NCBI GenBank assembly: GCA_031414535.1 | Contig: JANNVQ010000057.1 | Coordinates: forward strand, 64,001 to 128,000 | Length of the DNA stretch: 64,000 nt | From: Gemmatimonas sp. | GTDB taxonomy: Bacteria; Gemmatimonadota; Gemmatimonadetes; Gemmatimonadales; Gemmatimonadaceae | Direction: 5' to 3' | In this document: positions 8,717-24,518 of the stretch, one piece after another | How positions within the stretch are numbered: position 1 is the stretch's first letter | How the letters are laid out: each line of letters opens with the position of its first letter | Made by a program: the position numbers and the translations under genes | Notes under the pieces: model-generated | Databases searched by the model: none | The model's input: the letters and a program-made list of their open reading frames with translations, nothing else | Told to the model about the DNA's origin: nothing

Positions 8717-8959
8717 CTACGTCGCGGACACCAAGTCAATGAGTTCCTCAACTTCGAGCCCCAATCCGTTTGGCTCATCGGTAGGGTCCAATCCCCGCTC
8801 AATGAGTTCAGCGCTCAAGAGATCCAGCAGAAGCTCACGACCCTCAGCTAAGAGTCCTCCGCTCGCAATTGCATCCACATGAACGACTGCGTCAGCGTTG
8901 CGCCGCTGAATGATCTCTGCTAAGCGGCGAAGTTGCTGTGGGGTAGCACGTATACTCAT
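8717..8959 (-). CDS. Putative immunity protein for cassette A
   Basis: ATG overlaps the toxin stop (ATGA at 8956-8959). Small acidic protein ending ELIERGLDPTDEPNGLGLEVEELID. Confidence 0.7.
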   Translation of the reverse strand: MSIRATPQQLRRLAEIIQRRNADAVVHVDAIASGGLLAEGRELLLDLLSAELIERGLDPTDEPNGLGLEVEELIDLVSAT

Positions 8960-9495
8960 GGCACGATTCTCCACGCGCCGCGGCTCAGCGCCATTGTGGT
9001 GACGACTTCGCCGTCTGTGTTCAGCACCACTCGCGCGTTTCGGCCGACATAGAGCACTTTTCCGCCCTCTTGATGAAGAACTCTTAGGGGATTGGCGACC
9101 GCGTCTCGCATCGCCGCCTGCGTGACTCCGACACCTTCGCGTGATATTGCCTGATTCAGTCCGTGCCGGGTGAATCCCGGGATTTTGCCGCCGATTGGGA
9201 CGTTGAAGACGGCCTTGCTGGCACCCGGGAACTGATCTTCATTGAGTGCCTCAAAGAGCGAGGCGAACGCTCCGAGTGTCTTATTGACCGCACTCGAACC
9301 TCTGCCGGATGCGTTGCGATGCGCCCACCACCCGGATGAACCACGCGGGCAGTCGGACACCGCTTCGGTCTTTCCGTCACCGCCCGCAGACTTTGGGCAC
9401 AGCCCAAACGGATCCGAGAAGTTGACCGGGTCCCCGCCCGCGAAGCCATACGCATTCAGCCCACCCGCCAGCCCGATTGGGTCAAGGTGCGTGGA
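8956..9495 (-). CDS. Orphan Rhs C-terminal toxin cassette A (probable BECR-fold RNase-like); no evident start codon of its own at the repeat
   Basis: In frame STHLDPIGLAGGLNAYGFAGGDPVNFSDPFGL|CPK..., followed by FTRHGLNQAISR...YVGRNARVVLNTDGEVVT. Confidence 0.8.
   Translation of the reverse strand, partial: STHLDPIGLAGGLNAYGFAGGDPVNFSDPFGLCPKSAGGDGKTEAVSDCPRGSSGWWAHRNASGRGSSAVNKTLGAFASLFEALNEDQFPGASKAVFNVPIGGKIPGFTRHGLNQAISREGVGVTQAAMRDAVANPLRVLHQEGGKVLYVGRNARVVLNTDGEVVTTMALSRGAWRIVP
9400..9495 (-). repeat. Rhs core-end repeat, copy A
   Basis: Minus strand reads TCCACGCACCTTGACCCAATCGGGCTGGCGGGTGGGCTGAATGCGTATGGC...GATCCGTTTGGGCTG. Confidence 0.95.
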
Positions 9496-9555
9496 CTGTC
9501 CAGTAAATCAATCGTACGTTCAGGTCGCGGTGCACCGCAACCGTGCCTCGGCGCG

Positions 9556-9960
9556 CTACGGCGCGATGACCTTCACCGTCGGGAAGTAGGTCCGATAGCG
9601 CGCCGCATCTCGCGTCAGCAGCGCGTGGCCGCGGATCGCGGCGTGGGCTCCCACAAAGAAGTCCGGAAGTGGCGATCGCCTGGCTCCACCCGATCGCCGA
9701 TATCGCTGGAAGCATTTCCCCGCGAGGAATCCAGCATCCCAGGGGAGCGCGTCGCGTCGGAAGAACGTCGGCGGCAGTGCCGCCTCAAGATCCTCAATCC
9801 GTGCGAAGCCGACCGAGACCTCGGCATAGATGATCGGATTGATGATTAGGGCCTCCGATTCGGCGGCACGCGCGAGGGCGTCGGCCGACCACCGGAGCCA
9901 CGTCGGGTCCTCGGTTAGCACGTCCAGCAGCACGTTGCTGTCCACCAGGACGCCCGGCAT
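9556..9960 (-). CDS. vapC: PIN-domain toxin, VapC family
   Basis: LVDSNVLLD, IIYAEVS, LPDFFVGAHA and LLTRD acidic PIN motifs. Confidence 0.9.
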   Translation of the reverse strand: MPGVLVDSNVLLDVLTEDPTWLRWSADALARAAESEALIINPIIYAEVSVGFARIEDLEAALPPTFFRRDALPWDAGFLAGKCFQRYRRSGGARRSPLPDFFVGAHAAIRGHALLTRDAARYRTYFPTVKVIAP

Positions 9961-9964
9961 GCGC

Positions 9965-10192
9965 CTACTCGCCGCGGGTCAGCGCGAGAATCTCGTCGGT
10001 ACTCATCGGCACCGTGCTGCGTCCCCGAAGGTGCGCGACCAGCTTGGCGCCGCGTCGCCGACTGCGCCGCAGCTTGCGCAGCACGGCCTGACCGTCCTCC
10101 ACGACGAACTCGACTTCAGTATTCGGCAACAAGCCGAGGCGTTCGCGCACTTCGACCGGGATGGTGACCTGGCCCTTCGTCGTGATTTTCAT
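9965..10192 (-). CDS. vapB: AbrB/MazE/SpoVT-family antitoxin
   Basis: MKITTKGQVTIPVEVRERLGL, immediately upstream of the PIN toxin. Confidence 0.9.
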   Translation of the reverse strand: MKITTKGQVTIPVEVRERLGLLPNTEVEFVVEDGQAVLRKLRRSRRRGAKLVAHLRGRSTVPMSTDEILALTRGE

Positions 10193-10205
10193 TCGAATCG
10201 CCCCC

Positions 10206-10235
10206 CATGAGATGTATTACCATAAGATGTAATAC
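10206..10235. promoter_or_regulatory. Probable vapBC operator (inverted repeat GTATTAC-N8-GTAATAC)
   Basis: GTATTAC at 10214-10220 and GTAATAC at 10229-10235, just upstream of the antitoxin start. The same stretch is an imperfect 15-bp tandem repeat. Confidence 0.6.
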
Positions 10236-10310
10236 TAGCCCGGTACATTTTCATTCACAAGGAGCGATAGAAGCGGGATGGATCCTGCAGGCGAGTTCCC
10301 GCGCTCTTGG

Positions 10311-10850
10311 CTAGCCCTCGAAGTTTCGAATGCGCCGAACAACCCAGGAGCTGTGCCGTGTGCGGCTCAAGTCGACGACGAAGAATCCCCCCATCGTCCT
10401 TGGCGCGTCGAAGTACACGATGGCTTCAAGCACGGCTGCGGACGTCATGCTGCTATCTCCGACGAGTGCCAAGGCAACTGAAAGTGTATCCGATGTCTCT
10501 CCACGGACCCGGAAGCCGGATGAGACGAACAGCTTCGCTGGCGATCGACTTGCTAGTCGAAAGCGAGATCCGATCGTGGCGATTGCCGACATCTTGTTTG
10601 CTTGGAACGGTGCCACCACAGGCGCGCGGCCGATGACGGAGTCGACAACGATCACTCTACAACCCATCTCCGCGCAAAGTGAGTCGAGAGGAGCCGCTCG
10701 GAATGCGGTCGCTGCCGCTGCAACTGCAGCGGCCTGGGGTGACAATGAGGTGCGATCGACTGTTGGTCCGATGCGACAGGATGCGGTGAGCAGCAAGGAG
10801 GCCGCGAGGAGTCGCAGCGCTCGGCGGTCAAGGGTTGCGAAGGCAGCCAT
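10311..10850 (-). CDS. Putative lipoprotein immunity protein for cassette B
   Basis: MAAFATLDRRALRLLAASLLLTASC signal peptide with lipobox-like end; overlaps the toxin 3' end. Confidence 0.7.
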   Translation of the reverse strand: MAAFATLDRRALRLLAASLLLTASCRIGPTVDRTSLSPQAAAVAAAATAFRAAPLDSLCAEMGCRVIVVDSVIGRAPVVAPFQANKMSAIATIGSRFRLASRSPAKLFVSSGFRVRGETSDTLSVALALVGDSSMTSAAVLEAIVYFDAPRTMGGFFVVDLSRTRHSSWVVRRIRNFEG

Positions 10851-11334
10851 TCGGCACTCCTTGGAAAGGTTGTTCGCAGTGCGCGTACTTGCTGTTGCGT
10901 TCGACGATCCCACTCAGATGAGTAGCCTCGTGCCACGCAATTCCGCCAATCCCGCTCCGCCTCGTCTCGCGGTGTGATGGTCGGACGTGCGCAACGCCGC
11001 GAGCGCCTCCGAACCGCTTTCCAATCTCTCCCATCAAGCCGACGTCGTCGTCGCGATCGAACGACCAACCGCTTCCGTAGCAGAGCTGGCCGCAGCCCGC
11101 GTCGTCGCTGTCGAACAGCACGAACAGGTCGGGTGATTGCTCCAGCTTGCTAAACGTCGCATCTGCTTCGCTGTTCGACTTGCGTATTCGAGCAACCTCC
11201 TTTTGGAGGCGCTCGCCAACAATCTTTAGGTCAGCGGCGAGCCCGAACGGATCGTCGAAGTTGACCGGGTCCCCACCCGCGAAGCCATACGCATTCAACC
11301 CACCCGCCAGCCCGATCGGGTCAAGCTGCGTGGA
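10828..11334 (-). CDS. Orphan Rhs C-terminal toxin cassette B (HExxH zincin-like metallopeptidase)
   Basis: STQLDPIG...FDDPFGL followed by a domain containing IAWHEATHL. Confidence 0.8.
   Translation of the reverse strand, partial: STQLDPIGLAGGLNAYGFAGGDPVNFDDPFGLAADLKIVGERLQKEVARIRKSNSEADATFSKLEQSPDLFVLFDSDDAGCGQLCYGSGWSFDRDDDVGLMGEIGKRFGGARGVAHVRPSHRETRRSGIGGIAWHEATHLSGIVERNSKYAHCEQPFQGVPNGCLRNP
11239..11334 (-). repeat. Rhs core-end repeat, copy B
   Basis: Minus strand reads TCCACGCAGCTTGACCCGATCGGGCTGGCGGGTGGGTTGAATGCG... Confidence 0.95.
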
Positions 11335-11387
11335 CGGACTCGGACCTCATTTCTCGCGCGCAGTCGAGGGACCGGCTGATCGCACGG

Positions 11388-11816
11388 TCAACCGATTGAA
11401 ATCACCAGCCCCTCGGGAATCGAGAGTCTTGCCGTGGTCCCGTCCCCGGCAACCATTACCCACTCAGGTCCCTCCGCACAACCCGCTGTCTCTAACACCG
11501 AATCGTCATCAAACTTCAACGCTAGCGCACCCACCAAATCGTCGGCCTCGACTTCGACTATCCGACGCCCGGTCAGTTTGGCGACTGCTGCACGTAGCTG
11601 GCCGGCTTTACCACCCAGCATCTCACTGGACGCCAAAATGCTCGCTCCGCGTCGCCATCGCCAGCAATCCTCAAGCACGATACGCCACGATGTATCAGAG
11701 GGAGACGAGGCGGCATCAAACACCACCCGCAGTGCAGACCCGATGGGATTCGAAGCGACTACGCATTGCAAACCTACGGCCTTCTGGAGCATGCGCGTGA
11801 CGGTAATGGACGTCAT
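11388..11816 (-). CDS. Putative immunity protein for cassette C
   Basis: ATG directly abuts the toxin stop; 142 aa, no signal peptide. Confidence 0.65.
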   Translation of the reverse strand: MTSITVTRMLQKAVGLQCVVASNPIGSALRVVFDAASSPSDTSWRIVLEDCWRWRRGASILASSEMLGGKAGQLRAAVAKLTGRRIVEVEADDLVGALALKFDDDSVLETAGCAEGPEWVMVAGDGTTARLSIPEGLVISIG

Positions 11817-12263
11817 CTATTCGTGCTCCCGGTCTGTGTATTTCCGTTGCCTGCACAACTCCGTTGCCTCTTCGACGATGTCGTTGAACGAGACTGCTCC
11901 ATCTGCCCCGGCTCTGGTATCCAGCTCATCCACTCGCTTATAGAGTTCATCGCGCCCAGTGTCATTGAGCCTGCAGCTCATTCGGCGCTCGGCCTGTCGA
12001 ATTGCATCTCGGTATTGCTTGTTCTGCCTTGTGTTAGAGGCGAACTCAAGCACTAACGCACCGGTCACCGCTATGGCACTGGCAACGACGGCCCGAGCGA
12101 CGAGACGCAACAGATGGGCGCACGCGAAGGAGACGGGAGGAACAAGGCAAACCGCGGGAATTGCCAGTGTACCGTAAGGATCCGAGTAGTTGATTGGATC
12201 ACCATCCGCAAACCCATAGGCATTCAGTCCCCCCGCGAGCCCAATCGGGTCAAGCTGCGTGGA
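11817..12263 (-). CDS. Orphan Rhs C-terminal toxin cassette C (hydrophobic segment plus alpha-helical domain, family unassigned)
   Basis: STQLDPIG...YSDPYGT, a hydrophobic helix, then NTRQNKQYRDAIRQAERR. An in-frame TTG lies at 12272. Confidence 0.8.
   Translation of the reverse strand, partial: STQLDPIGLAGGLNAYGFADGDPINYSDPYGTLAIPAVCLVPPVSFACAHLLRLVARAVVASAIAVTGALVLEFASNTRQNKQYRDAIRQAERRMSCRLNDTGRDELYKRVDELDTRAGADGAVSFNDIVEEATELCRQRKYTDREHE
12168..12263 (-). repeat. Rhs core-end repeat, copy C
   Basis: Minus strand reads TCCACGCAGCTTGACCCGATTGGGCTCGCGGGGGGACTGAATGCC... Confidence 0.95.
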
Positions 12264-12395
12264 TGGACCCAACCTTAAACACTTCCATCATGGCTAGCTC
12301 GAATTGCGGCTAATGAAGGGCGACGAGAATAAGTTGGCTCGCTCGGTTAACGGCAAGGTGGCGAAACCACACTCAATCGATGGGCCAATCTCTGA

Positions 12396-12716
12396 CTACA
12401 ACTCACGTCGACGATTCTCTTCATCAAAAAGGTCCGCAATGAGTTGCTCGAGTGGCGGCCGCACACTCTGTGCGTGAGGGCCAATGTGCTCGAACAGCTC
12501 TCCTCCCAGCTCCGCCAAGTACACCCGAAGCGCGTCCGCGCGTTGCGCTTCGCTGACGTGGGCGATGCGCTCTATCGTCTCCGCTGCATGAGTCAAGCCA
12601 GCGTGGAGGTCCGCTAGATGATAGGCGACATCGTCTCCGCGTGGCGATCCCAGTAGTGCGCGAAATCGAAGATGAAGCAGCTCTCGGAGTTGCTTGTTGT
12701 CGGCAGATGAGGGCAT
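12396..12716 (-). CDS. Putative immunity protein for the currently attached Rhs toxin domain
   Basis: ATG 7 nt after the rhs stop, preceded by purine-rich GAGAAGGGA; ~106 aa, helical. Confidence 0.7.
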   Translation of the reverse strand: MPSSADNKQLRELLHLRFRALLGSPRGDDVAYHLADLHAGLTHAAETIERIAHVSEAQRADALRVYLAELGGELFEHIGPHAQSVRPPLEQLIADLFDEENRRREL

Positions 12717-12723
12717 TCCCTTC

Positions 12724-15700
12724 TCAAGCTTCCAGTGGAGGAGTGACAGCATCCAGTCGGCTTTGCCAAGCGTCGACTTGCTCCTTGTAGCGCGCATTCG
12801 TGCGGCCCTTCATGCTTTTCAAGTGGTCTCGAGCTTGGTTAATCCATCCTCGAATCTCTCCACGGTGATGATTCGCATCTCTAGCACCGGGATCCTCTCC
12901 AACGGCGCCGAGATGGCCCTCAATGTTCGCTCGCAATTGTTCGATTTTGCCAATTGCCCAGCCTTGTGCACCACTCGCCAAGACAAGCCCGTCCGCGATT
13001 GCCCCTAGACGTGCACCGAAAGCGGCTCCCGCACTAACGCCGGCTGCCCCTCCCGGAATGGCTCCAAATCCAGCGCCAGCGATGAAGCCGCCACCGCCGC
13101 CCGTCATACCTCCCATCAGCGCTCCCGTAATCGCGCCCACGGAGGTCCAGAATCCTGGGCAGTCGCGGGGATCGTTGTCCCGTGGGGGACACAGTCCAAA
13201 CGGGTCCGAGAAGTTGACCGGATCCCCACCAGCGAAGCCGTACGCATTCAGCCCACCCGCGAGCCCGATCGGGTCAAGCTGCGTGAACTGTCCCGTCGTC
13301 GGATTGTAGTAGCGGTTCCGCAAAAAGGTCAGGCCCGACGCGTCACGCCGACCACGCACCAAACTCCCGAACCAGTTGCTAAACAGAACCGGGTCGGCGC
13401 CTACGTCTCTTCGGTACGCGCTGACTGAAGCAGCTAGCCACTCCGTCGGACAGCGCCCCGGCGTGAACGTCGTGCAATTCGTCCCATCTGCCAGATTGCC
13501 AAAAGCAATGTCTCCACGCCAACCGGCCTGAGGCGTCAACGTCGTCCAGCCGGAGTCGGGCCGGAGCTTCGCAAGATGAGCCGGCGCATCGACACCCAGT
13601 CCGTGCGCGTAAAGCACGACGCCAAAGAGCAGTGGATAGGTCGGGTCCGTCCAGCCACTCGTCGTGCCATCCTGCGCCGCGATGCCCTCGCCCTCTAGAA
13701 CGGCAGCCGTCGCGTTCGCTTGTCCGCTGCTGCGGATCTCCGCTAACACTTGATCGCCATCGTAAACAGTTCGCTCGATGTATGCATCGCAGGGGCTCGA
13801 GCAGGTCGGCTCGATCTTTCTCACGCGCACGAGGACGCGCCGTCCAAGCGCGTCGTAGCGGTACTCACTCGACGTTCCGGCGACGCCATTCACGCCTTCA
13901 GCGTCTTCATGCGACATCAGTCGTTCATCGGCGCCGAAGTAGGAACGTGCGTTCCGCAGTACGGTCGATGCATCCGACAGATTGGTGCCGCGCGTGTCAC
14001 GCTCTGCGGTCGAGGTGACGTTCCCGCTGGCATCGTGCTCCAGCGCCAGCGACCAGATGTACCACGAGGGGTGGCACGAATGCACGAGCGAGGTGGCGCA
14101 GTTGCTTCCAGTATCGGCGAGCACGCCGCCGGTGAGACGGAGACCAGAGAACGTGTGGCGACGGGTACGATTGATTCCCGCTACCATATCTACATCGTGT
14201 GTGTAACGAAGCGTGCCGATGCCGTCTACCAAGAAGGCCTCGCTGCTGAGTCCGCTGGCAAGTCCCGTGACGCTCGCCAACGCACCAAGTCCAGCATATT
14301 CCAGCGACACCGGCGTGTCACCAGAACTGACGCGAATGACTCGCCCACCTGCGTCGTAGCGCAGCGTGTCAGCGGCCGGGTGACCACCGCTTCCGACCCG
14401 GCGCAACACCCTGCCCTCGCGGTCGTATGCAAGGTTGAGAACCACGCTCCCTGGCGCCGTCGTGCTCGTCAGCTGCCCTGTAGCATCGTAGGCGTAGGTG
14501 GTCTGCAGCGTCCCACCGCTAGCGCTCGGATGCGTCAGTGTGGCAAGCTCACCGCGAGACGAGTACGCATACTGCTGCAAGCAGGCACCGCTACAGGGAT
14601 CAAGCTGGGTGGGTAGCGTCAGCGAGATGCGGCGCCCGAGGTGATCGTAACCGTACTGCAGTTGATACGAATGCGCGTTCCAGTCGCTCCCGGTCTCACT
14701 GAACGCGCCGGCGTGCCGATCGCCGCCTCCGCAGGCGTTCGGAGCCTCCGTCGCATACTTCCTGATGATCTGCGTTTCGGAGAGCAACGCACCATTTGGC
14801 GCGTAGCTTCGCCGTATCCGCGCCCAATTATTGTCGGCTACTCTTGTCTGCCCAGACGCATCGTACGCGAACAGCGCCGTATCCACGCCTATGCAGCGCG
14901 TAGACGCATCATCTAAGATGGGAAAGGTGTAGGTGCAGAGAGTTCCGTACCAGTGACACAGCGCGTTGCCTTCGCTCGCGGATGGCGTCACGCGTCGCGT
15001 GAGGCGATTCAGCGCATCGTACTGCATCGCGATGACGAATCCACGGGGCTTAGTGGCCTCAATGACGTTTCCGCTGGCATCGTACGTCGAGTAGTTTGCC
15101 CCACCGCCCGGCTCCGACGCCAACGTCGCGCGGCCGAGCGAATCGTACTGCCATGTTGCGACAAGGGTGTCGCTTGCCCCTGCCGTGGCTCCATTGACCG
15201 AGAAGCGCCGGCGGTGCTGCGTAACTCGTCCCATGGCGTCGTACACTTTGCTCACTCGCACCCAGTCGGCGAGGATGATGCGGCCGTTGGCCAGCGTATC
15301 CACCGGTCCCCGCGTTACCTGCGCGCTATCGCGTCCGAGCGTATCGTACCAAATTGAGTCCACAACTCCGTATTGCACAACTAAACTGGAGTCGGTGCCT
15401 CGGGATCCGGTATCGCGAGGCGTGTACAGCCGGACGGGCCTCCCGACATTGTCATTCACCGACAAGGAGACGAAGCCAAGTGGCGATACCGTCTTGCGGA
15501 GATTGCCGCGCTGGTCGTAAATGAAGGTTGTAACGCCGCTGTCAGGCTGAGTAATCGAGAGCGGCAGACGCGCGCCGGATGCCGTGGTCGTATACGCGAA
15601 GGTCACCCGAGTCGTACTGCTGCCACCGCGTTGTTGCCAAGCGAGACTGGAGTCACTGTTGTAACTAGCGACGGCCAAGGTATCGAACTTGGTGATATCC

Positions 15701-17985: not shown

Positions 17986-18231
17986 CTTGCGTTGCTCCGC
18001 ATTCGAGTGAGGTCTATGGTGCGCCGTTCGTTTTCAATGCTCGTGCAGGTACAAGCGTTGTCAAGCGCACGTTCATGGCGATGACCCACTCACGTGAGCT
18101 TGGTCACGGCGACAGAAATGCGACAGCAACGGCAGTGCGCGCCGCTGATGGGACGAGACATGTGGAGACAGCATCGACGATGCTTTCCAACGCGTTCGCG
18201 CGATTGTTACTATGATTCTTGCATGAGCCAC

Positions 18232-18327
18232 TCCACGCAGCTTGACCCGATTGGGCTGGAGGGTGGACTGAATGAGTACGGCTTCGCTGAAGGCGATCCA
18301 ATCAACTTTTCGGATCCGTTTGGGCTG
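18232..18327 (+). repeat. Rhs core-end repeat, copy D (inverted)
   Basis: TCCACGCAGCTTGACCCGATTGGGCTGGAGGGTGGACTGAATGAG... Confidence 0.95.
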
Positions 18328-18717
18328 TGTCCTAAAGCGGCGGGAGGCGACGGGAAGACGGAGGAGTACTCCGACTGTCCTCGTGGAAGTTCCGGATACT
18401 GGGCTCATCAAAGCATGCAGGGAAACGGCGGGTTGCTCACTGAGGTGCGCGGTACCACTGCATCATGCGATGAGAGCACGGCGTGCTTGGCCGTCGCGAT
18501 TGCTGGAGGCGCGTATGTCGGGACGCTCGTTGCCGTCGAAGCCGGGGCATCTAGGCTGGCCGCTACAGCGCTTGCGCTGATGCAGTCGAACAGATACCTC
18601 CGCATCGGCGTCGGACGACATAACGGCAGGCGTGTATTTCGGGCTGCGGGCAAACTCGTGCAGAAGATCAAGAAGGACGGTCACATCGACTTCTGGGACA
18701 TGGGGCCTCTACCATGA
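18232..18717 (+). CDS. Orphan Rhs C-terminal toxin cassette D (basic C-terminal domain, possibly a nuclease), inverted relative to rhs
   Basis: STQLDPIGLEGG...DPFGL|CPKAAGG...SNRYLRIGVGRHNGRRVFR...GHIDFW. An in-frame ATG lies at 18223. Confidence 0.8.
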   Translation, partial: STQLDPIGLEGGLNEYGFAEGDPINFSDPFGLCPKAAGGDGKTEEYSDCPRGSSGYWAHQSMQGNGGLLTEVRGTTASCDESTACLAVAIAGGAYVGTLVAVEAGASRLAATALALMQSNRYLRIGVGRHNGRRVFRAAGKLVQKIKKDGHIDFWDMGPLP

Positions 18718-18989
18718 CAACCGAACTTTCGGACTTTCAACGAGACGCGCTCGCCGATATTCGAGACGTCCTGAAGGATGCCGGTCGCTCATCCGAGTCG
18801 GAATCGGTGTTGGGCAACCAGGAGAAGTACGTAGCGATTGCATTCGGCGGCTACAAGGCCCTACTGTACGCGGACGGGGCTGAGTTACTCGGCAACGGGC
18901 TGGATCGCCGATTCGAGAAGTACGATTTCGACTCCCTGGACGACCTTCGCATTCACTTTATTCTCGAGCTGCGCCAGTTAATGACCTAA
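18714..18989 (+). CDS. Putative immunity protein for cassette D
   Basis: ATGA overlap with the toxin stop; small and acidic. Confidence 0.7.
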   Translation: MTTELSDFQRDALADIRDVLKDAGRSSESESVLGNQEKYVAIAFGGYKALLYADGAELLGNGLDRRFEKYDFDSLDDLRIHFILELRQLMT

Positions 18990-19070
18990 CCCGCCGGGTT
19001 CTGCCTTGGCGCGCCGGCGCCATCGGCATGGGCCCTCGCCGCTCCGCTGTAAGCTCAGCCGTCGCGTCCA

Positions 19071-19166
19071 TCCACGCAGCTTGACCCGATCGGGCTGGCG
19101 GGTGGGTTGAACGCGTATGGCTTTGCGGGTGGGGACCCGATCAACTTCTCGGATCCGTTCGGGCTG
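19071..19166 (+). repeat. Rhs core-end repeat, copy E (inverted)
   Basis: TCCACGCAGCTTGACCCGATCGGGCTGGCGGGTGGGTTGAACGCG...; 19068-19135 is identical to 22293-22360. Confidence 0.95.
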
Positions 19167-19634
19167 TGCCCCCATGACCCAGCTCGGCCATGTCCTGCTT
19201 GGACGGGAGCCAAGGCCGCGGCTGTCGTCTCAAGGTTGGCAGATTGGGCTTCGAACATGGCCGTACTGCCGAGCATCACCGTTACAGCCGGGCCCATACA
19301 GGCTGAGTTCAGCGCGGACGGAGTGGCAGTCACCGGCAGTGCACAGATGGCGCTTGCGCTGACCCTCAACGGGACGGTCGGGCGGGGCGCAGGGGAACTC
19401 GGGACCCTTTCAGTCGGCGGACTGGTCGGGACAGGATTCGTCGGCGGAATGACTGCAAGTTTCGACGCCAAGTCCAAGAATCTTGAAGGAGTGACGTACA
19501 GCATCGGCATTGGCTTTGCCTTGCCTGTCGCGAAATCGATGGAGTTGTCGGATGCCGGCGCGAAGCTTCTTTCCGGCGCCGGTACGGTGGGTGTTGGACT
19601 GGGCGAAGGAAGAATGAAAGCGAAGAAGCAATGA
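19071..19634 (+). CDS. Orphan Rhs C-terminal toxin cassette E (Gly/hydrophobic-rich, possibly membrane-active)
   Basis: STQLDPIG...DPFGL|CPHDPARPC, then Gly/Val/Ala-rich strands with no obvious catalytic motif. Confidence 0.8.
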   Translation, partial: STQLDPIGLAGGLNAYGFAGGDPINFSDPFGLCPHDPARPCPAWTGAKAAAVVSRLADWASNMAVLPSITVTAGPIQAEFSADGVAVTGSAQMALALTLNGTVGRGAGELGTLSVGGLVGTGFVGGMTASFDAKSKNLEGVTYSIGIGFALPVAKSMELSDAGAKLLSGAGTVGVGLGEGRMKAKKQ

Positions 19635-19918
19635 CCAAGAAATTTCCGTTCAACGACGGCACCGACGACGTGCCTCTGCGGCTCATCGCCACGATTCCAA
19701 TCTGGATGCTGCGCGCAGCGGTGGGCGGCGTAGCTGGTGTCCGGATGTTTGTGCTTGTACTGGCCGTCGATGGGCTGCTGATTTTGGGAACTTGGATAGC
19801 AATCGCGCCATCTGTGCGCTCGAATTCCGAGGTGGGCAATCCCGCCTCAGGAGAGCGGTTCGTACTTTTGCCGCTGGTCTTGGCGGGAGTGTTGACCTTG
19901 TTCGACTTGTTTCCGTGA
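19631..19918 (+). CDS. Putative membrane immunity protein for cassette E
   Basis: ATGA overlap with the toxin stop; 2-3 hydrophobic segments. Confidence 0.65.
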   Translation: MTKKFPFNDGTDDVPLRLIATIPIWMLRAAVGGVAGVRMFVLVLAVDGLLILGTWIAIAPSVRSNSEVGNPASGERFVLLPLVLAGVLTLFDLFP

Positions 19919-19988
19919 CTTTGATGTCTGTCGTCGGTGCACACGCACAGTACCCCAGCGGCACGCCTACTGGCACTCATTAGGATAG

Positions 19989-20084
19989 TTCACGCAGCTT
20001 GACCCGATCGGGCTCGCGGGCGGGCTGAATGCGTACGGATTCGCGGGCGGGGATCCGGTCAATTTCTCGGATCCATTCGGGCTG
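19989..20084 (+). repeat. Rhs core-end repeat, copy F (inverted)
   Basis: First 32 bp are identical to the copy in rhs; the 9 remaining differences are all synonymous. Confidence 0.95.
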
Positions 20085-20543
20085 TGTCCACAAGACGTGA
20101 CGGGAAAGCCATGTCAGAATCCGCTGGGCAATCTGGCGCTGAACGTGAGGCCCGGCATAGGAGGATTCGAGCTGAACTCGCAGCGTACGGCGGGCGTTCA
20201 CGGCGGCATCGACTTACTCGCGCCCAAGGGCAGCGATGTGACGGCCGCTTCTGACGGAGTGTTTGAACGACGAAGCGATCCCAACGGGCTTGGTGATTAC
20301 GCCGTCGTGTGGCACGGAGGGAGCGCAACGGTATACGGCCACCTCTCGGGTTTCGCAGACGGGCTCCGAACGGGCGATCGCGTTCGCGCAGGACAAGTCA
20401 TCGGCAAGACGGGTGACAGCGGGAACGCGAAGGGAACGCCTGACCACCTTCACTTCGAGATTTGGACAGACTTCAAGACGGTTGGTCGAGGTGGGACAGC
20501 CGGCCGACGTGACCCAGAACGTGAACTTCGTAAGGCGCCGTGA
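19989..20543 (+). CDS. Orphan Rhs C-terminal toxin cassette F (M23 family peptidoglycan endopeptidase)
   Basis: FTQLDPIG...DPFGL|CPQD..., with M23 motifs HGGID, YGHL, GQVIGKTGDSGN and HLHFE. An in-frame TAG sits immediately before the repeat. Confidence 0.88.
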   Translation, partial: FTQLDPIGLAGGLNAYGFAGGDPVNFSDPFGLCPQDVTGKPCQNPLGNLALNVRPGIGGFELNSQRTAGVHGGIDLLAPKGSDVTAASDGVFERRSDPNGLGDYAVVWHGGSATVYGHLSGFADGLRTGDRVRAGQVIGKTGDSGNAKGTPDHLHFEIWTDFKTVGRGGTAGRRDPERELRKAP

Positions 20544-21109
20544 AGAACAATCTTACGTTGACTAAGCGAGCAGTTGTGCTTCCTCTGCATTTGCTGTTGA
20601 TGAGCGGAGCCGGTTGCGATAGAGCACCTGCGCCTGCGGCGGCACTGCCGCAGAGAACTGAGTTCGCGGTGCAGTTCGATTCTACCGTCGGTGCGGACTC
20701 CACCGGACTTCGATCCGCGCTCATCGCATTTGGTGACTCGCTCCACCTGACTCACTTTCAGGCAAGCATCAGTCAGTTCGGTGGCGCTCCTACGAGATAC
20801 TTCGCGTTTCTAATTGGTCCTCCGGCGTACAAAAGCGGAAACGTTCAGTTCGCGTTGCTCACTGCGCGCGATGGGGCCTTTGCGGTGAAGGACCTTTTCG
20901 ACACGGGCGTCCCGTCCGGTCCAGTAGGTATCGCACTCGAGGCACTCGCTGACTTCGACTCGGACGGTCTTCCCGATGCGCACTACTGCGACTTTAGTTT
21001 GGCCAGTGACTCCACTCCGGTATCGCGTGTGCTGGGATACGGAGGCGCTGGATGGTATGCTGTTCAAACTTCGAAGGCGGTTCGATGTCGAGCGGACACC
21101 AGTCGCTAA
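20540..21109 (+). CDS. Putative lipoprotein immunity protein for the M23 cassette F
   Basis: GTGA overlap with the toxin stop; signal peptide ending LLMSGAGC. Confidence 0.7.
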   Translation: MKNNLTLTKRAVVLPLHLLLMSGAGCDRAPAPAAALPQRTEFAVQFDSTVGADSTGLRSALIAFGDSLHLTHFQASISQFGGAPTRYFAFLIGPPAYKSGNVQFALLTARDGAFAVKDLFDTGVPSGPVGIALEALADFDSDGLPDAHYCDFSLASDSTPVSRVLGYGGAGWYAVQTSKAVRCRADTSR

Positions 21110-21361
21110 TGCGAGCCGCTGCACTGCCTAACCTTAAGTTCTGCTGCAGCGGCGCCGGCGCTGGCAGCAGCGACTCGGGTTCGGCGGGTCGTCTCGGGTT
21201 CGCTCGCCAACGTGTGCCCCCGCGACAACCCCATTGGTCGGGTCGAATCGGCGCGGGGTTTGCCGGACGCTCGATTGCTCAATCGCGCCCCGCCCCCTCC
21301 GACACACACACAGCGCGTACCGACTCGACTCGCGCAGAAGCGGACCGCCCGCGAGCCGTGC

Positions 21362-21946
21362 TCAGCGCGGGGTCAAACAACGCGCGAGCAAGTCGCTGAC
21401 GCCGAGGACGGGGGCCCATCGATTCAAGACCGTGCGGTCGAGTGCGTCCTCCTGCAGCGCGACAATTGCCGCCACGTCGCGCCACTGGCGCTCCGAGACC
21501 TCGCCCCCCCGGCGGTACCATTCCAGCTTGCGCAACAGTGTGTGCTCGGCGGTGTCGAGCCAGAGCGACCCGGTCGCTGGCGGGGGCACGGGCACCGCCA
21601 CCCGCGTGCGCAGGCGCTCGTGATCAAACGCGTCATCTCCCGCCACGAACACATCAACCTTCACCCCGGCCTGCAGGTGCACGAGGTTGAAGGTTGTGCC
21701 GAGGCGCACTGCGTCGCGCGCAGCGTCCGCGTCCACGTAATAGTCTCGCGCGAGCGCGGCGACGACCCGACTCACGGTGCTGACGCGGAGGTCAGCGACG
21801 AGATCCACATCCAGTGTGGCGCGTGGTTCGCCATGGACCGAGCTCGCGAGCGAGCCGCCAATCACATACGGGACGGCGGCGGCCTCAAGCTGCTGCGCCA
21901 CGTCAAGCGCGACCGCGAGGACGTCGAGTTTGGGCGGCGGAATCAC
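21362..21946 (-). CDS. Nucleotidyltransferase-like protein (TA-like)
   Basis: YVIGGSLASSVHGEPRATLDVD and LLRKLEWYRRGGEVSERQWRDV; GTGA overlap with the upstream small ORF. Confidence 0.75.
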   Translation of the reverse strand: MIPPPKLDVLAVALDVAQQLEAAAVPYVIGGSLASSVHGEPRATLDVDLVADLRVSTVSRVVAALARDYYVDADAARDAVRLGTTFNLVHLQAGVKVDVFVAGDDAFDHERLRTRVAVPVPPPATGSLWLDTAEHTLLRKLEWYRRGGEVSERQWRDVAAIVALQEDALDRTVLNRWAPVLGVSDLLARCLTPR

Positions 21947-22194
21947 CGTGGGGAGCGCGCATACGCGCGCGCCGCGAGTGCGGAGCCGAGCCGGCGCTCG
22001 ATGGCCGCGCGCTCGAGCTCCTCCAGGGCGAGCGTCGGCCGGCGGTGGCGTAACCCCTCGAGTTCCAGCCACAGCACCATCGCCGAGACATCGCGTACCA
22101 GCGCCAGCTTATCGGTCGACGACAGCGCGCGCCACGCAGCTCGCTGGCGCGCAGCGGCGTCTGGAGTGGTGTCGAGGAGGTGGCTGGAGCGCAT
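21943..22194 (-). CDS. Small partner of the nucleotidyltransferase (putative antitoxin)
   Basis: DTTPDAAARQRAAWRALSSTDKL; 83 aa; its stop overlaps the NTase start. Confidence 0.6.
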   Translation of the reverse strand: MRSSHLLDTTPDAAARQRAAWRALSSTDKLALVRDVSAMVLWLELEGLRHRRPTLALEELERAAIERRLGSALAARAYARSPR

Positions 22195-22295
22195 GCTGTA
22201 AAGGTCGCGCAGATGCTGGGGGTCGCGCCACTGGTCTGGGCGGCGGGCGCAATTGCCGTCGGTCGACGCGCGGTTATGATTGGGGAGCGGGCCCA

Positions 22296-22391
22296 TCCAC
22301 GCAGCTTGACCCGATCGGGCTGGCGGGTGGGTTGAACGCGTATGGCTTTGCGGGTGGGGATCCGGTCAATTTCTCCGATCCGTTCGGGTTG
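22296..22391 (+). repeat. Rhs core-end repeat, copy G (inverted)
   Basis: TCCACGCAGCTTGACCCGATCGGGCTGGCGGGTGGGTTGAACGCG... Confidence 0.95.
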
Positions 22392-22865
22392 TGTCCGCCT
22401 GAAGAGACAGGGCGGCCCTGCACTGCGGGCGGTGTCGACTACAGGAGTGTTCGGGGAAAATCGACCGCCGTCCCATCAATGGCGACGTATGTCAGTTCGT
22501 TGGCGCGCGATCTCGGCTATCACATCGTAGTGACGAGCGGAGATCGTGACCGCGTCCCAAGTGGCGGAGCGACTACCAGCAACCATTTGATTCCTTCAAT
22601 GAATCCATCTCGAACAGGAGCGGTCGACTTTAAGGCATACACGCCGAATGGGCAGATGGTGCCGATGGGCAAGCTGTTTAGTGAGTCGCTGGACGCCGCA
22701 TCAACCGAATCCAGTCACGCACGCCTGATTTGGCACGACGTTGGCACAGTGACGGGTACGCAGCACCTGCATGCGGACAAGAGCACCGATGGCCACCGCT
22801 ATGAAGCGGGAGAGAAGAACACGAGGGGCAGAGCTGTTTACCGGCCCGTCGGGGGCAAGCCATGA
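22296..22865 (+). CDS. Orphan Rhs C-terminal toxin cassette G (M15/LAS-type Zn peptidase, cell-wall peptidase-like)
   Basis: STQLDPIG...DPFGL|CPPEETGRPC, then VTSGDR...GGATTSNH...AVD...HLHAD. Confidence 0.8.
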   Translation, partial: STQLDPIGLAGGLNAYGFAGGDPVNFSDPFGLCPPEETGRPCTAGGVDYRSVRGKSTAVPSMATYVSSLARDLGYHIVVTSGDRDRVPSGGATTSNHLIPSMNPSRTGAVDFKAYTPNGQMVPMGKLFSESLDAASTESSHARLIWHDVGTVTGTQHLHADKSTDGHRYEAGEKNTRGRAVYRPVGGKP

Positions 22866-23449
22866 TGCGGAACTCGACACTTGGCATGCTTGTTCTCGGA
22901 GTCTTCTCCCTGATTGGGTGCACAACCAAAGAAGAGCCCGCCAACCGCAGCGGTGCCAGCCAAGAATCTGCCGCGGACTGGATACTCGACTCTGGTCAGT
23001 TTAGGAATCGAACGTCACACCGGGTTGAACCTGTTCCAAGCAGTCTTCCGGAAAACATCTCCGCGCTGGAGGATGTGGATGGTCCCGATGGTACAGAGTT
23101 GTACACCTACATCTTGCTTGGCTCTGATACGGTGGGCGTCTACTTGTGGTCCACAGCACGAAGACTCGAACGACTCCGAATCCTAAGCTCCCGAGTGCAC
23201 ACGCCCAGTGGTGGCCACGTCGGCCTGACCGCTACGGCTCTTGCAGAGAAGGTGGGAGAACTCGAAGTGATAACTACTGAGGAGGGCGTGCTCGTTTGGG
23301 GCACGCGAGATCGCGAGTTCAGCTTCGTACTCGGCGCTGGAACGCAGCCGCGCGATAGCAGCGTTTTGAGGTCTCAAGGCTTCGTTGCGAGCGACACCGT
23401 CCAGATGATTCTTTGGTCGCGCAATCGGGTAGCGCGACAACGCAAGTGA
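22862..23449 (+). CDS. Putative lipoprotein immunity protein for cassette G
   Basis: ATGA overlap with the toxin stop; MMRNSTLGMLVLGVFSLIGC lipobox. Confidence 0.72.
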   Translation: MMRNSTLGMLVLGVFSLIGCTTKEEPANRSGASQESAADWILDSGQFRNRTSHRVEPVPSSLPENISALEDVDGPDGTELYTYILLGSDTVGVYLWSTARRLERLRILSSRVHTPSGGHVGLTATALAEKVGELEVITTEEGVLVWGTRDREFSFVLGAGTQPRDSSVLRSQGFVASDTVQMILWSRNRVARQRK

Positions 23450-23567
23450 TGAGGGTCGATACTAGGCGGCTCACGGTATGAGGGCAGGGAGTTGATCCGT
23501 GAACATGGCGTTAGTGTCGTCGCGTTCCGGGGCAGCACTGAATGTTTTTCCGCGAGTGCCCTGTTGC

Positions 23568-24518
23568 TCACCCCGCGGGATGTGTTAGCAGGTGTACCTT
23601 CTGCAATCGCGCGACCGACACGTGCGTGTAGATCTGCGTGGTCGTCAGTCGCGTATGCCCGAGCAGTACCTGCAAATCGCGAATGTCCGCCCCAGCGTCG
23701 TGCATCAAAGTTGCCATCGTATGGCGAAACACGTGGCAACTGCCTCGTCCACGGATGCCTGCCGCATGCAACCGCGCTTGGCATAGCGCGGTGAGCGTCT
23801 TCGGCGTCAGGCGGCCCCCGTGGCGACCGAGGAACAGCGCGGGCTCATCGACCGACTTCGAGCATCGAATACGAGCCGTCGCCACATAATTCATGACTGC
23901 CACGACAGCACGCTTGCCTACCGGAACAACGCGCGACCTCCCGCCCTTCCCGCGCCGTATCCGTACCAGGCCTTCCTCACCCGCAAAGTCGCACACATCC
24001 AAAGCGCACACCTCCGCGCGGCGCAGCCCGGACGAGTACATCAACTCGAGCATCGCGTGATTGCGCACCCCAATCGCTGACCGTCGCGGCACGGCAACGA
24101 GTACTCGATCCACCTCATTCACCGACAACGTCGCAATTGGCGGACGCTCAGGAATGCGAATCGATGGCAGTTCACTCCAAAGGTCTCCGGCAATCAAGCC
24201 ACCCCGCTGAAGCCAACGAAGAAAGGCGCGAAGCGCACCGACATCCTTAGCAACCGTTGAACGGTCCACCCTGCCGCCGCTTCGCGTCGAGCGAGTCTGA
24301 AGTCGGCCCAACAGAGACTCGATCACTCCCAGGTTAAGCTCGCGCGGAGCCACAACTCCGAGCACCGAGAGCTCTCGGGTGATTCCGCGGAGTTGCACCG
24401 CTCGAGTGCGAACTGTGCTCGCTGCGCTGCCCATCGCCACAAGGTGCGCGAGGAAACGCGGCACTGACTCTTGAAGAGTTGGGTCAGTATCTAAATGTGC
24501 CGCCAACGCGCTGCGCAC
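23568..24518 (-). CDS. XerC/XerD-like tyrosine recombinase
   Basis: Complete catalytic set: SSGLRRAE (R), RGKGG (K), HVFRH (HxxR), LLGH (H) and TQIYT (Y), plus an N-terminal SAM-like core-binding region. Confidence 0.93.
   Translation of the reverse strand: MRSALAAHLDTDPTLQESVPRFLAHLVAMGSAASTVRTRAVQLRGITRELSVLGVVAPRELNLGVIESLLGRLQTRSTRSGGRVDRSTVAKDVGALRAFLRWLQRGGLIAGDLWSELPSIRIPERPPIATLSVNEVDRVLVAVPRRSAIGVRNHAMLELMYSSGLRRAEVCALDVCDFAGEEGLVRIRRGKGGRSRVVPVGKRAVVAVMNYVATARIRCSKSVDEPALFLGRHGGRLTPKTLTALCQARLHAAGIRGRGSCHVFRHTMATLMHDAGADIRDLQVLLGHTRLTTTQIYTHVSVARLQKVHLLTHPAG

Follow-up and report, generated by a model that had tools for sequence, protein, structure and literature searches.

The stretch of Gemmatimonas sp. 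DNA considered here (64,000 nt, positions 64,001 to 128,000 of contig JANNVQ010000057.1; hereafter the window) belongs to a 3.7-Mb metagenome-assembled genome (MAG) of 58 contigs, and between positions 8717 and 24518 it carries one full-length rhs gene, seven orphan cassettes that pair a predicted Rhs toxin end with a small downstream open reading frame (ORF), and a gene for an Xer-like tyrosine recombinase. With a probability of about 0.5, we read this locus as an Rhs cassette array associated with a recombinase whose lineage descends from primase-integrase elements targeting the Rhs core end and would have built and reshuffled the array. The initial annotation of this DNA had described one full rhs gene and seven orphan modules, each opening with the same core-end repeat, three in direct and four in inverted orientation, with an intact tyrosine recombinase at the end of the array. 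This inventory held: the repeat starts it gave agree with ours within a few bases, and the recombinase gene (23568-24518) retains its catalytic residues. The genes and sites of the array are the following, toxin and immunity assignments being predictions.

8717-8974, minus strand: small ORF of 85 aa after cassette A, candidate immunity gene by position; no Pfam match.
8956-9507, minus strand: orphan cassette A, repeat (9395-9504) and C-terminal toxin region; Rhs_assc_core 29.9 bits; 22-nt site at 9472-9493 with two mismatches.
10311-10913, minus strand: ORF after cassette B, candidate immunity gene with an uncertain start codon, overlapping the end of B; no Pfam match.
10828-11346, minus strand: orphan cassette B, repeat (11234-11343) and toxin region; site at 11311-11332 exact.
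11388-11816, minus strand: ORF after cassette C, candidate immunity gene; weak DUF6188 match (E 0.0047), below the cut-off.
11817-12287, minus strand: orphan cassette C, repeat (12163-12272) and toxin region; site at 12240-12261.
12396-12797, minus strand: ORF following the toxin end of rhs and candidate for its cognate immunity gene; no Pfam match.
12724-17985, minus strand: full-length rhs gene, 1753 aa, with a repeat copy at 13187-13296 and a glycine-rich C-terminal region beyond the core end; RHS_repeat (PF05593) E 3.7e-34.
13264-13285, minus strand: candidate recombination site at the 5' edge of the core-end repeat in rhs; exact 22-mer also in B, E, F and G.
18085-18717, plus strand: orphan cassette D, repeat (18224-18338) and toxin region whose first ~35 aa are cassette A-like; Rhs_assc_core 35.4 bits.
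18714-18989, plus strand: candidate immunity gene of D, 91 aa, overlapping the toxin stop by 4 nt (ORF list).
19053-19634, plus strand: orphan cassette E, repeat (19063-19177) and glycine-rich toxin region (repeat alignment).
19631-19918, plus strand: candidate immunity gene of E, 95 aa (ORF list).
19989-20543, plus strand: orphan cassette F, repeat (19981-20095) and predicted M23 peptidase toxin, with an in-frame stop just ahead of the repeat; Peptidase_M23 E 3.6e-20.
20540-21109, plus strand: candidate immunity gene of F, 189 aa (ORF list).
22287-22865, plus strand: orphan cassette G, repeat (22288-22402) and toxin region; still beside the recombinase in the relative seen in sequencing run X3.
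22862-23449, plus strand: candidate immunity gene of G, 195 aa (ORF list).
23568-24518, minus strand: Xer-like tyrosine recombinase of the short form (316 aa), associated with the array and convergent with G; Phage_integrase E 4.8e-35.

A repeat search of the window resolved two families of four copies each, about 110 nt long, the minus-sense family being made up of the copies in A, B, C and rhs and the plus-sense family of those in D, E, F and G. The 16 inverted pairs that they form are 78-92% complementary, and the copies differ from one another by 8-30%. Across the 3.7-Mb genome these eight were the only copies of the core-end repeat, and a genome search with the 22-nt pattern CACGCAGNNNGACCCGATYGGG, allowing up to three mismatches, returned the eight copies and a single three-mismatch site elsewhere (0.09 expected by chance).

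The rhs product also matches the YD repeat model TIGR01643 (E 1.4e-20) and, over residues 1547-1598, the Rhs_assc_core model (TIGR03696; 57.4 bits, cut-off 32.5). Its core end reads ...TTGQFTQLDPIGL..., running through QLDPIGL...DPFGL, a motif of the DPxGL type, after which the tails are unrelated. Each orphan reads in frame from the repeat into a distinct C-terminal region followed by a small ORF, which overlaps the toxin stop by 4 nt in D, E, F and G; the seven orphan modules have no N-terminal shell of their own and match only the last ~30 positions of TIGR03696. From this arrangement the C-terminal regions are predicted toxins and the small downstream ORFs candidate immunity genes, the latter by position. 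The tail of cassette F is the only one with a recognised domain, the M23 peptidase. As a separate observation on the window Rhs protein, its N-terminus resembles, by eye, a signal peptide, and Pfam gave no PAAR match.

Two further observations concern the cassettes themselves. Cassettes A and D are 78% similar over 181 nt (9318-9498 against 18229-18409), a similarity that runs about 35 codons past the repeat into the toxin region, with the common stretch CPK.AGGDGKTE..SDCPRGSSG.WAH, before the two diverge; this suggests a shared linker or recombination within toxin ends. Moreover, in cassette F the site is preceded by about 12 nt that resemble the core (19986-19994), with TAG in place of the CAG of the core, and cassette A retains the same ~12-nt stretch; A and F both look like past occupants of the expressed position.

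It is very improbable that the inverted arm or the cassette order is an artefact of metagenome assembly through the shared repeat, a possibility that the initial annotation had raised. The run data (all four runs) are Logan contigs built at k=31, X1, X2 and X3 being labels for sequencing runs. The 58-contig state of the MAG would leave room for such an artefact, and at k=31 the graph is broken by all the repeats other than C and D: the X1 contigs stop at repeats A, B, E, F and G and at that of rhs, no junction being readable there, reference or alternative. The order in which segments E, F and G follow one another therefore depends on the original assembler. Against this, a single X1 contig spans 13260-19097 without interruption, through the rhs core, the rhs 5' end and inverted cassette D, and the X2 contigs agree with it. 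Run X3, which comes from a different study, holds a relative at about 94%, with contigs for the core, for the rhs 5' end leading into a repeat at the position of D, and for cassette G joined to the recombinase on one contig of 13.6 kb. On the strength of the X1 contig and of this relative, the inverted arm is no artefact of a single assembly. Two-armed arrays are found in addition in four other genomes, among them G044 (7 contigs), G042 (20 contigs) and G049, where labels beginning with G denote genomes or arrays of the genus set (55 genomes searched) and those beginning with L denote fetched loci. Likewise, the difference of 8-30% between copies allows ordinary reads to separate them. Cover in X3 was lacking across the bodies of most other cassettes, and X2 showed almost none at 12287-12827, holes which in such data prove nothing. 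Apparent joints at 9798>23933, 20083>23608 and others were rejected as belonging to other organisms, their short sides being 27-37 nt on conserved motifs. When metagenome contigs were searched with the final 400 aa of the rhs core, the matches were distant Rhs proteins only, with no near-identical strain among them.

The recombinase has R152, K191, H262, R265, H288 and Y297 in invariant columns of the alignment, and its best family matches are of Xer type, with 244 bits against the XerC subfamily cut-off of 371. A housekeeping XerC or XerD was ruled out, the protein scoring below both equivalog cut-offs (196 and 194 bits against 335 and 330), occurring patchily (15 of 55 genomes) and falling into a separate group of the tree. 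Nor is the enzyme an integron-type integrase, as the models TIGR02249 (86.6 bits, cut-off 265) and NF011946 (45.3, cut-off 435) lie far under their thresholds. Tyrosine-type invertase models reached 58.8 and 53.2 bits, with cut-offs of 222 and 221, and no Rci model was among the matches.

Five Phage_integrase genes are present in the source genome. Among the 55 genomes of the genus, relatives of the window enzyme occupy 20 places in 15 genomes at E<=1e-50, with 37-55% identity; ordinary Xer genes match at 1e-41 or weaker in most genomes, and two other Xer-like matches are found in most. In a quick tree with SH-aLRT support only, built on 78 distinct rows out of 95 matches after removal of those with <270 aligned residues, this clade and the ordinary Xer genes split with a support of 99. 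The genus recombinases come in a short form of 310-340 aa, that of the window included, and a long form of ~600 aa (L013, L014, L015, L016, L019, L044, L049, L055 and L061), whose conserved N-terminal ~300 aa look like a degenerate primase/Toprim region fused to the recombinase; among the long forms only L013 matches Toprim_2, weakly (E 2.7e-06). In the same tree, the window recombinase clusters (support 93) with long forms from G044a, G042:C5, G041 and G067. Shared synteny with G044b was considered and rejected, the 753-aa ORFs that lie beyond the recombinase in the two loci being unrelated. Viral contigs scanned with the recombinase alignment gave one weak match, for which reason the element does not appear phage-like in the viral collection scanned.

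The initial annotation had assigned the recombinase to the array, and the survey of relatives confirms that it is no chance neighbour. The core-end motif lies on the same fetched stretch in 17 of the 20 clade places, the other three being contigs of <=4.5 kb. Each of the 15 clade-bearing genomes contains the repeat, and a clade member is absent from all 29 genomes that lack it; in 11 genomes, several of them incomplete, the repeat is present and a clade member was not found. An alignment-based scan, with one genome per species, yielded 79 loci selected by recombinase from Gemmatimonadota, Verrucomicrobiota, Planctomycetota, Acidobacteriota, Myxococcota, Photorhabdus and others. A hidden Markov model of the motif made from the genus copies matched 41 of these, and 57 after two iterations; those without a motif are mostly short contigs. 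In the 16 loci added by iteration, all 20 motif matches are co-oriented with the recombinase, the motif lying just downstream of it in most and a second one ~4.4-5.3 kb upstream in some. As a control, 40 metagenome loci were picked by Rhs core similarity; none showed more than one motif, a clade member was absent from all, and two carried a recombinase with 29% identity. Array stretches lacking a recombinase do occur (G056, G010c, G060b and G050b).

The architecture of these wider loci points to the origin of the enzyme. In the usual case, a co-oriented motif follows the recombinase stop by 0.03-1.7 kb and a second precedes its start by about 4.4-5.8 kb, and directly upstream of the recombinase lies a DnaG-type primase of 927-1082 aa with CHC2 zinc ribbon, DNAG_N and Toprim domains. 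The motifs that flank a unit are direct repeats, which in L067 are 97 nt long and 100% identical, and in L067, L068, L073, L083, L113, L117 and L121 the integrase adjoins one of two direct target repeats with a replication gene inside. Tandem primase-recombinase units are found in L113, L132 and L133. A 7865-nt Acidobacteriaceae contig (L109, assembled at k=127) has identical ends of 127 nt and contains a 1082-aa primase, a 363-aa recombinase and a 266-aa ORF holding the core-end motif, which is expected of either a circular element or tandem copies. The unit of the relatives has the appearance of a small element that integrates and possibly replicates, with the Rhs core end as its attachment site, and that brings a toxin end with its immunity gene. 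One genome of Photorhabdus asymbiotica has three places (L132, 91-11023; L133; L134) where tandem units are separated by a weak core-end motif. The window itself departs from this pattern, as it has no primase, its recombinase is convergent with G and no site follows.

We therefore propose, tentatively and at somewhat less than even odds, that elements of ~7-8 kb encoding a primase and a tyrosine integrase form a family, distributed over Gemmatimonadota, Planctomycetota, Verrucomicrobiota, Acidobacteriota, Myxococcota and Photorhabdus, which attaches at the Rhs core end and brings a replacement toxin with its immunity gene, and that Gemmatimonas derivatives in which the primase was lost or fused have been kept as recombinases of arrays, with inversion of the core, as in a toxin shufflon, among their activities. 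In the ancestral setting, such an element, with its DnaG-type primase and integrase, would attach at the 5' edge of the Rhs core-end coding DNA and carry its own core-end, toxin end and immunity gene. Upon integration, the resident core would be joined to the new end and the old end displaced downstream, and because the element brings all three parts, the expressed toxin would be replaced and the former one would become an orphan. In the present genome the recombinase alone remains, in short form and without primase, at the end of an array with eight sites in both orientations. Given that most relatives resemble integrases of primase elements lying between direct repeats, integration and excision are at least as likely an activity of the enzyme as inversion.

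The position of the candidate site was deduced from the repeat copies, for which the alignments and counts omit motif matches that start past model position 15 or lie too near a contig end. In the window, the seven orphans begin their homology to the core within ~10 nt of one point, and many copies show a weaker, fading similarity for ~36 nt further upstream. A codon analysis of 146 copies from 33 array stretches found the conservation of synonymous positions highest at the 5' edge of the repeat and falling toward the 3' end. At the edge, ACG is used in 143 of 143 copies (genome-wide share 0.50), GAC in 141 of 145 (0.59), CCG in 136 of 146 (0.47) and GGG in 135 of 146 (0.14), compared with a top-codon share of 0.37-0.6 toward the 3' end. 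The 22-mer is identical in five of the eight window copies (rhs, B, E, F and G). The longest exact identity between the rhs copy and the others is 18-34 nt, which begins at the 22-nt site except for A and reaches 34 nt in cassette F, and would offer little substrate to RecA.

Two relatives bear on the same edge. In G042:C8, an inverted duplication of 9.8 kb with 95.7% identity (L051:514-10329 against L052:6589-16326) begins exactly at CACGCAG, beside the recombinase, and in L071 two inverted copies flanking the recombinase share a perfect 42-nt block at the 5' edge. We further observed that in G042:C8 the whole region downstream of rhs, comprising the toxin end, four cassettes and more, is present in reverse downstream of the recombinase.

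The single variable codon of the site is specific to the array. It is CTT in all eight window copies, on both arms, and in none of 138 other copies; within one genome, G044a has CCG in 6 of 6 copies and G044b CGC in 12 of 12, and in the same manner G012a has CCG (5 of 5) and G012b GAA (9 of 9). G042:C5 and G042:C6, whose recombinase regions are 93% identical, have a common mixture of CAG and ATG. Inverted pairs of the window are 81.9% identical, compared with 72.5% to copies from other genomes, and together with the shared site codon this shows that the repeat copies on both arms evolve in concert. Partner sites of tyrosine recombinases require matching strand-exchange regions; an array-specific codon would be expected if the codon lay in that region, because partner sites must match there.

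The same repeats allow a different account, in which the locus is a passive record of horizontal transfer and of RecA-dependent recombination or gene conversion through the repeat, the route known for orphan rhs modules of enterobacteria, with a rare inversion or inversions, and the recombinase is an idle leftover integrase. We consider this account unlikely. It would draw on the shared exact stretches of 18-34 nt within copies of 70-91% overall identity, on private variants strewn along the repeat in a manner that resembles gene conversion, on the window recombinase having neither the primase partner nor the site-adjacent position of the apparently intact elements, and on recombinase-free array stretches such as those named above; the 5' stretch is, moreover, conserved in lone rhs genes without a recombinase. 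However, RecA usually requires stretches of exact identity at least as long as these, or longer, to exchange DNA efficiently, and in the copies aligned the boundaries of homology are sharp and uniform, unlike the variable core fragments of enterobacterial orphans. The peak of synonymous conservation lies at the 5' edge, although the protein of a future fusion should be under the weakest selection there, and the presence of different site codons in two arrays of one genome is hard to square with general gene conversion. Finally, the recombinase ORF retains all catalytic residues, and in the X3 relative a 1-nt deletion in the recombinase gene is followed 3 nt on by a 1-nt insertion, a pair of changes that keeps the frame.

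Under our reading of a recombinase-associated array, the geometry of the sites determines what the enzyme could do. A crossover of the rhs site (13264-13285) with the inverted site of D, E, F or G would flip the promoter and the core and fuse the core in frame to that toxin, and the initial annotation was right that the rhs repeat and any inverted copy would join in this way; a crossover with the direct site of A, B or C would excise or delete the intervening DNA. We infer that the recombinase of the window is active, that it cuts at the 22-nt site and that inversions, which the geometry would allow, occur. The further claim that all eight toxins could be reached reversibly with no loss stands in part: by our own working on the map, inversions alone reach all of them, whereas deletion would remove A, B and C if the enzyme were not restricted to inversions, and nothing here indicates such a restriction.

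Comparison of cassette order and orientation in relatives, as the initial annotation had proposed, shows that two-armed or mixed-orientation arrays recur. Two-armed arrays are found in G044b, G042:C8 and G049, and the arrangement in G041 is mixed. G044a has rhs, a toxin with its immunity gene, the recombinase and then five inverted cassettes, which is the classical shufflon layout, and G011 shows the same R64-like order of rhs, recombinase and inverted cassettes. In G042:C5, rhs is followed by five direct cassettes, a reversed recombinase and two inverted cassettes; by our own working on the maps, a single inversion that has the rhs site and the first inverted cassette as its ends would turn this layout into that of G044a. 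The recombinases of G044a, G042:C5 and G041, which are those of the window's group with enough flank, lie at points where the orientation switches. Among arrays with at least two copies, both orientations are present in 9 of 15 with a recombinase on the stretch and in 2 of 10 without.

These layouts would suit a dedicated shufflon, in which a programmed invertase flips the rhs core often and reversibly, so that a population mixes eight toxins without losing DNA. In its favor, besides the recurrent layouts, the commoner mixed orientation with a recombinase and the grouping of the window enzyme with those at switch points, the four inverted copies are 78-91% complementary to the rhs copy and all in the same reading frame, and the site codon is identical on both arms. 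Still, the direct cassettes would be exposed to deletion as set out above, the invertase models score 53-59 bits against cut-offs of 221-222, most relatives lie between direct repeats with a primase in the fashion of integrases, and a single arrangement was assembled through all the repeats, the run contigs being uninformative either way. In G042:C8, moreover, inversion would change nothing, because both arms carry the same cassettes. A dedicated, programmed switch is thus rather unlikely, and the label of shufflon that the initial annotation gave to the locus exceeds the evidence, the enzyme being Xer-like, with no invertase model above its cut-off and integrase-like relatives.

Several findings weigh against our own reading of the locus as an array built and reshuffled by recombinases of element descent. 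The window recombinase lacks a primase partner, and its identity to the relatives found does not exceed 40-46%; it converges on the last cassette, G, where a position just upstream of a site would be expected, and no site lies past its stop. For these reasons it may be a relic. No alternative junction was observed: the MAG contig passes all eight repeats in one arrangement, and the k=31 run contigs end at repeats. Gene conversion within an array would give the same array-specific pattern of codons, and the private variants that window copies have in common at +4, +5 and +37 would likewise result from gene conversion by homologous recombination, the variant at +37 indicating that the whole repeat evolves in concert and not the site alone. 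The 22-nt stretch is found also in the lone rhs genes of G017 and G023, genomes in which no clade member was found, so that its conservation is independent of a resident recombinase. Around the site, a search found no pair of inverted binding arms of the Xer/Cre type of at least 7 nt, only the 10-nt palindrome CCCGATCGGG, besides which one weak pair of 7-nt arms with two mismatches can be aligned. The identical ends of L109 are explained equally well by tandem copies. In addition, the counts of linkage and orientation are indicative only and overstate the statistics, since kin genomes are not independent and recombinase-bearing arrays lie on longer contigs.

Comparison with known systems places the locus between several of them. 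In the pilV shufflon of R64, the tyrosine recombinase Rci acts at 19-bp sfx sites. The window resembles it in having a constant part with alternative C-termini, short inverted repeats and a tyrosine recombinase at the edge of the array, and the R64 layout of constant gene, recombinase and inverted cassettes is matched by the relatives G044a and G011. It differs in that the recombinase is Xer-like and reaches no Rci or invertase model at cut-off, that the repeats lie within a conserved coding motif of ~100 nt instead of at 19-bp sfx sites, that direct copies are also present, and that the 5-kb constant part would itself flip in the predicted inversion.

Orphan rhs C-terminal/immunity modules of Salmonella and Escherichia coli lie downstream in direct orientation and are switched by RecA-dependent deletion or duplication. 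Like these, the window has a complete rhs gene and, after it, toxin/immunity modules that lack a promoter and retain part of the core end; unlike them, four of its modules are upstream and inverted, the boundaries are uniform, and a dedicated recombinase clade accompanies the arrays. Integrons combine a tyrosine recombinase with an array of promoterless cassettes, the cassette at the expression site being used. The window differs from integrons in that its repeats are coding sequence and not attC hairpins, in addition to the score of 86.6 against 265 for the integron integrase.

Islands that target tRNA genes insert in the 3' end of a conserved gene and restore it, and P4-like satellites and phage-inducible chromosomal islands are small islands with an integrase and a primase. 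The unit found in relatives is similar, with an integrase beside one repeat, a primase, cargo, direct repeats of the target 3' end and a new 3' end supplied. In contrast with such islands, the gene targeted encodes a protein toxin, the end that is restored would be a new toxin and no copy of the old one, and the window has the recombinase only.

The rAID arrays of Bacteroidales consist, in the part of the source available to us, of co-oriented orphan immunity genes of low G+C with a tyrosine recombinase, and how they build up is left open there (PMC12247911). As far as that description goes, the likeness is that a tyrosine recombinase accompanies an array of short cassettes, which are tied to interbacterial toxins and have a conserved motif between them, and a rAID-like layout, in which the recombinase is followed by co-oriented cassettes, is present in Gemmatimonas G012:C376 and G045:C96. 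Measured against the same partial description, the window has the recombinase and motif-separated cassettes of rAID arrays and lacks their co-oriented, immunity-only cassettes: its own consist of a full toxin end with the Rhs core-end and an immunity gene and are found in both orientations, and a full rhs gene is part of the locus. In Snodgrassella and Gilliamella of the bee gut, integrase-like genes recur beside Rhs loci, and a help in the transfer or capture of Rhs genes was suggested for them (PMC5727410). Their role was left open in the portion of that report available, and no site, primase partner or inverted cassettes are described in it (PMC5727410).

Polymorphic toxins (Rhs, CdiA, MafB) exchange their C-terminal warheads and build orphan arrays, and to our knowledge this exchange has so far been explained mechanistically by homologous recombination only. 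No account of an Rhs shufflon or of a primase-integrase element that targets rhs was found in the full-text literature searched, which includes few subscription journals and no supplements, so that an earlier description is possible. If our reading is correct, there would be an enzymatic route for acquiring toxins, for displacing the resident toxin and, where sites are inverted, for switching between stored toxins, and the long-postulated "C-terminal displacement" of polymorphic toxins would have a dedicated vehicle. Within what is described of rAID arrays, the idea, so far applied to immunity-only arrays of gut Bacteroidales, would come to include full toxin cassettes of environmental phyla. 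With a 22-nt site and one enzyme of 316 aa, the proposal is directly testable.

The array flanks are ordinary chromosomal genes, and the base composition of the region gave no clear island signature. Two further groups of genes lie between the cassettes.

9556-10192, minus strand: VapC-like PIN gene (9556-9960) and MazE/AbrB-like antitoxin gene (9965-10192) between A and B; PIN E 6.3e-08, MazE_antitoxin E 1.7e-11.
21362-22296, minus strand: two overlapping ORFs of 236 and 117 aa between F and G; no match in Pfam, NCBIfam or PADLOC.

The latter two ORFs fall in the kilobase of highest G+C in the region (0.686). Finally, the window has no genes of a type II secretion system, and in two relatives, G042:C8 (L051:11438-19977 with L052) and G044b (L047:839-2287), a type II secretion operon with genes for a secretin, GspE, GspF, a GspK-like and a GspM-like protein lies between rhs and the divergent cassette arm, an arrangement in which Rhs toxins may be delivered through this system.

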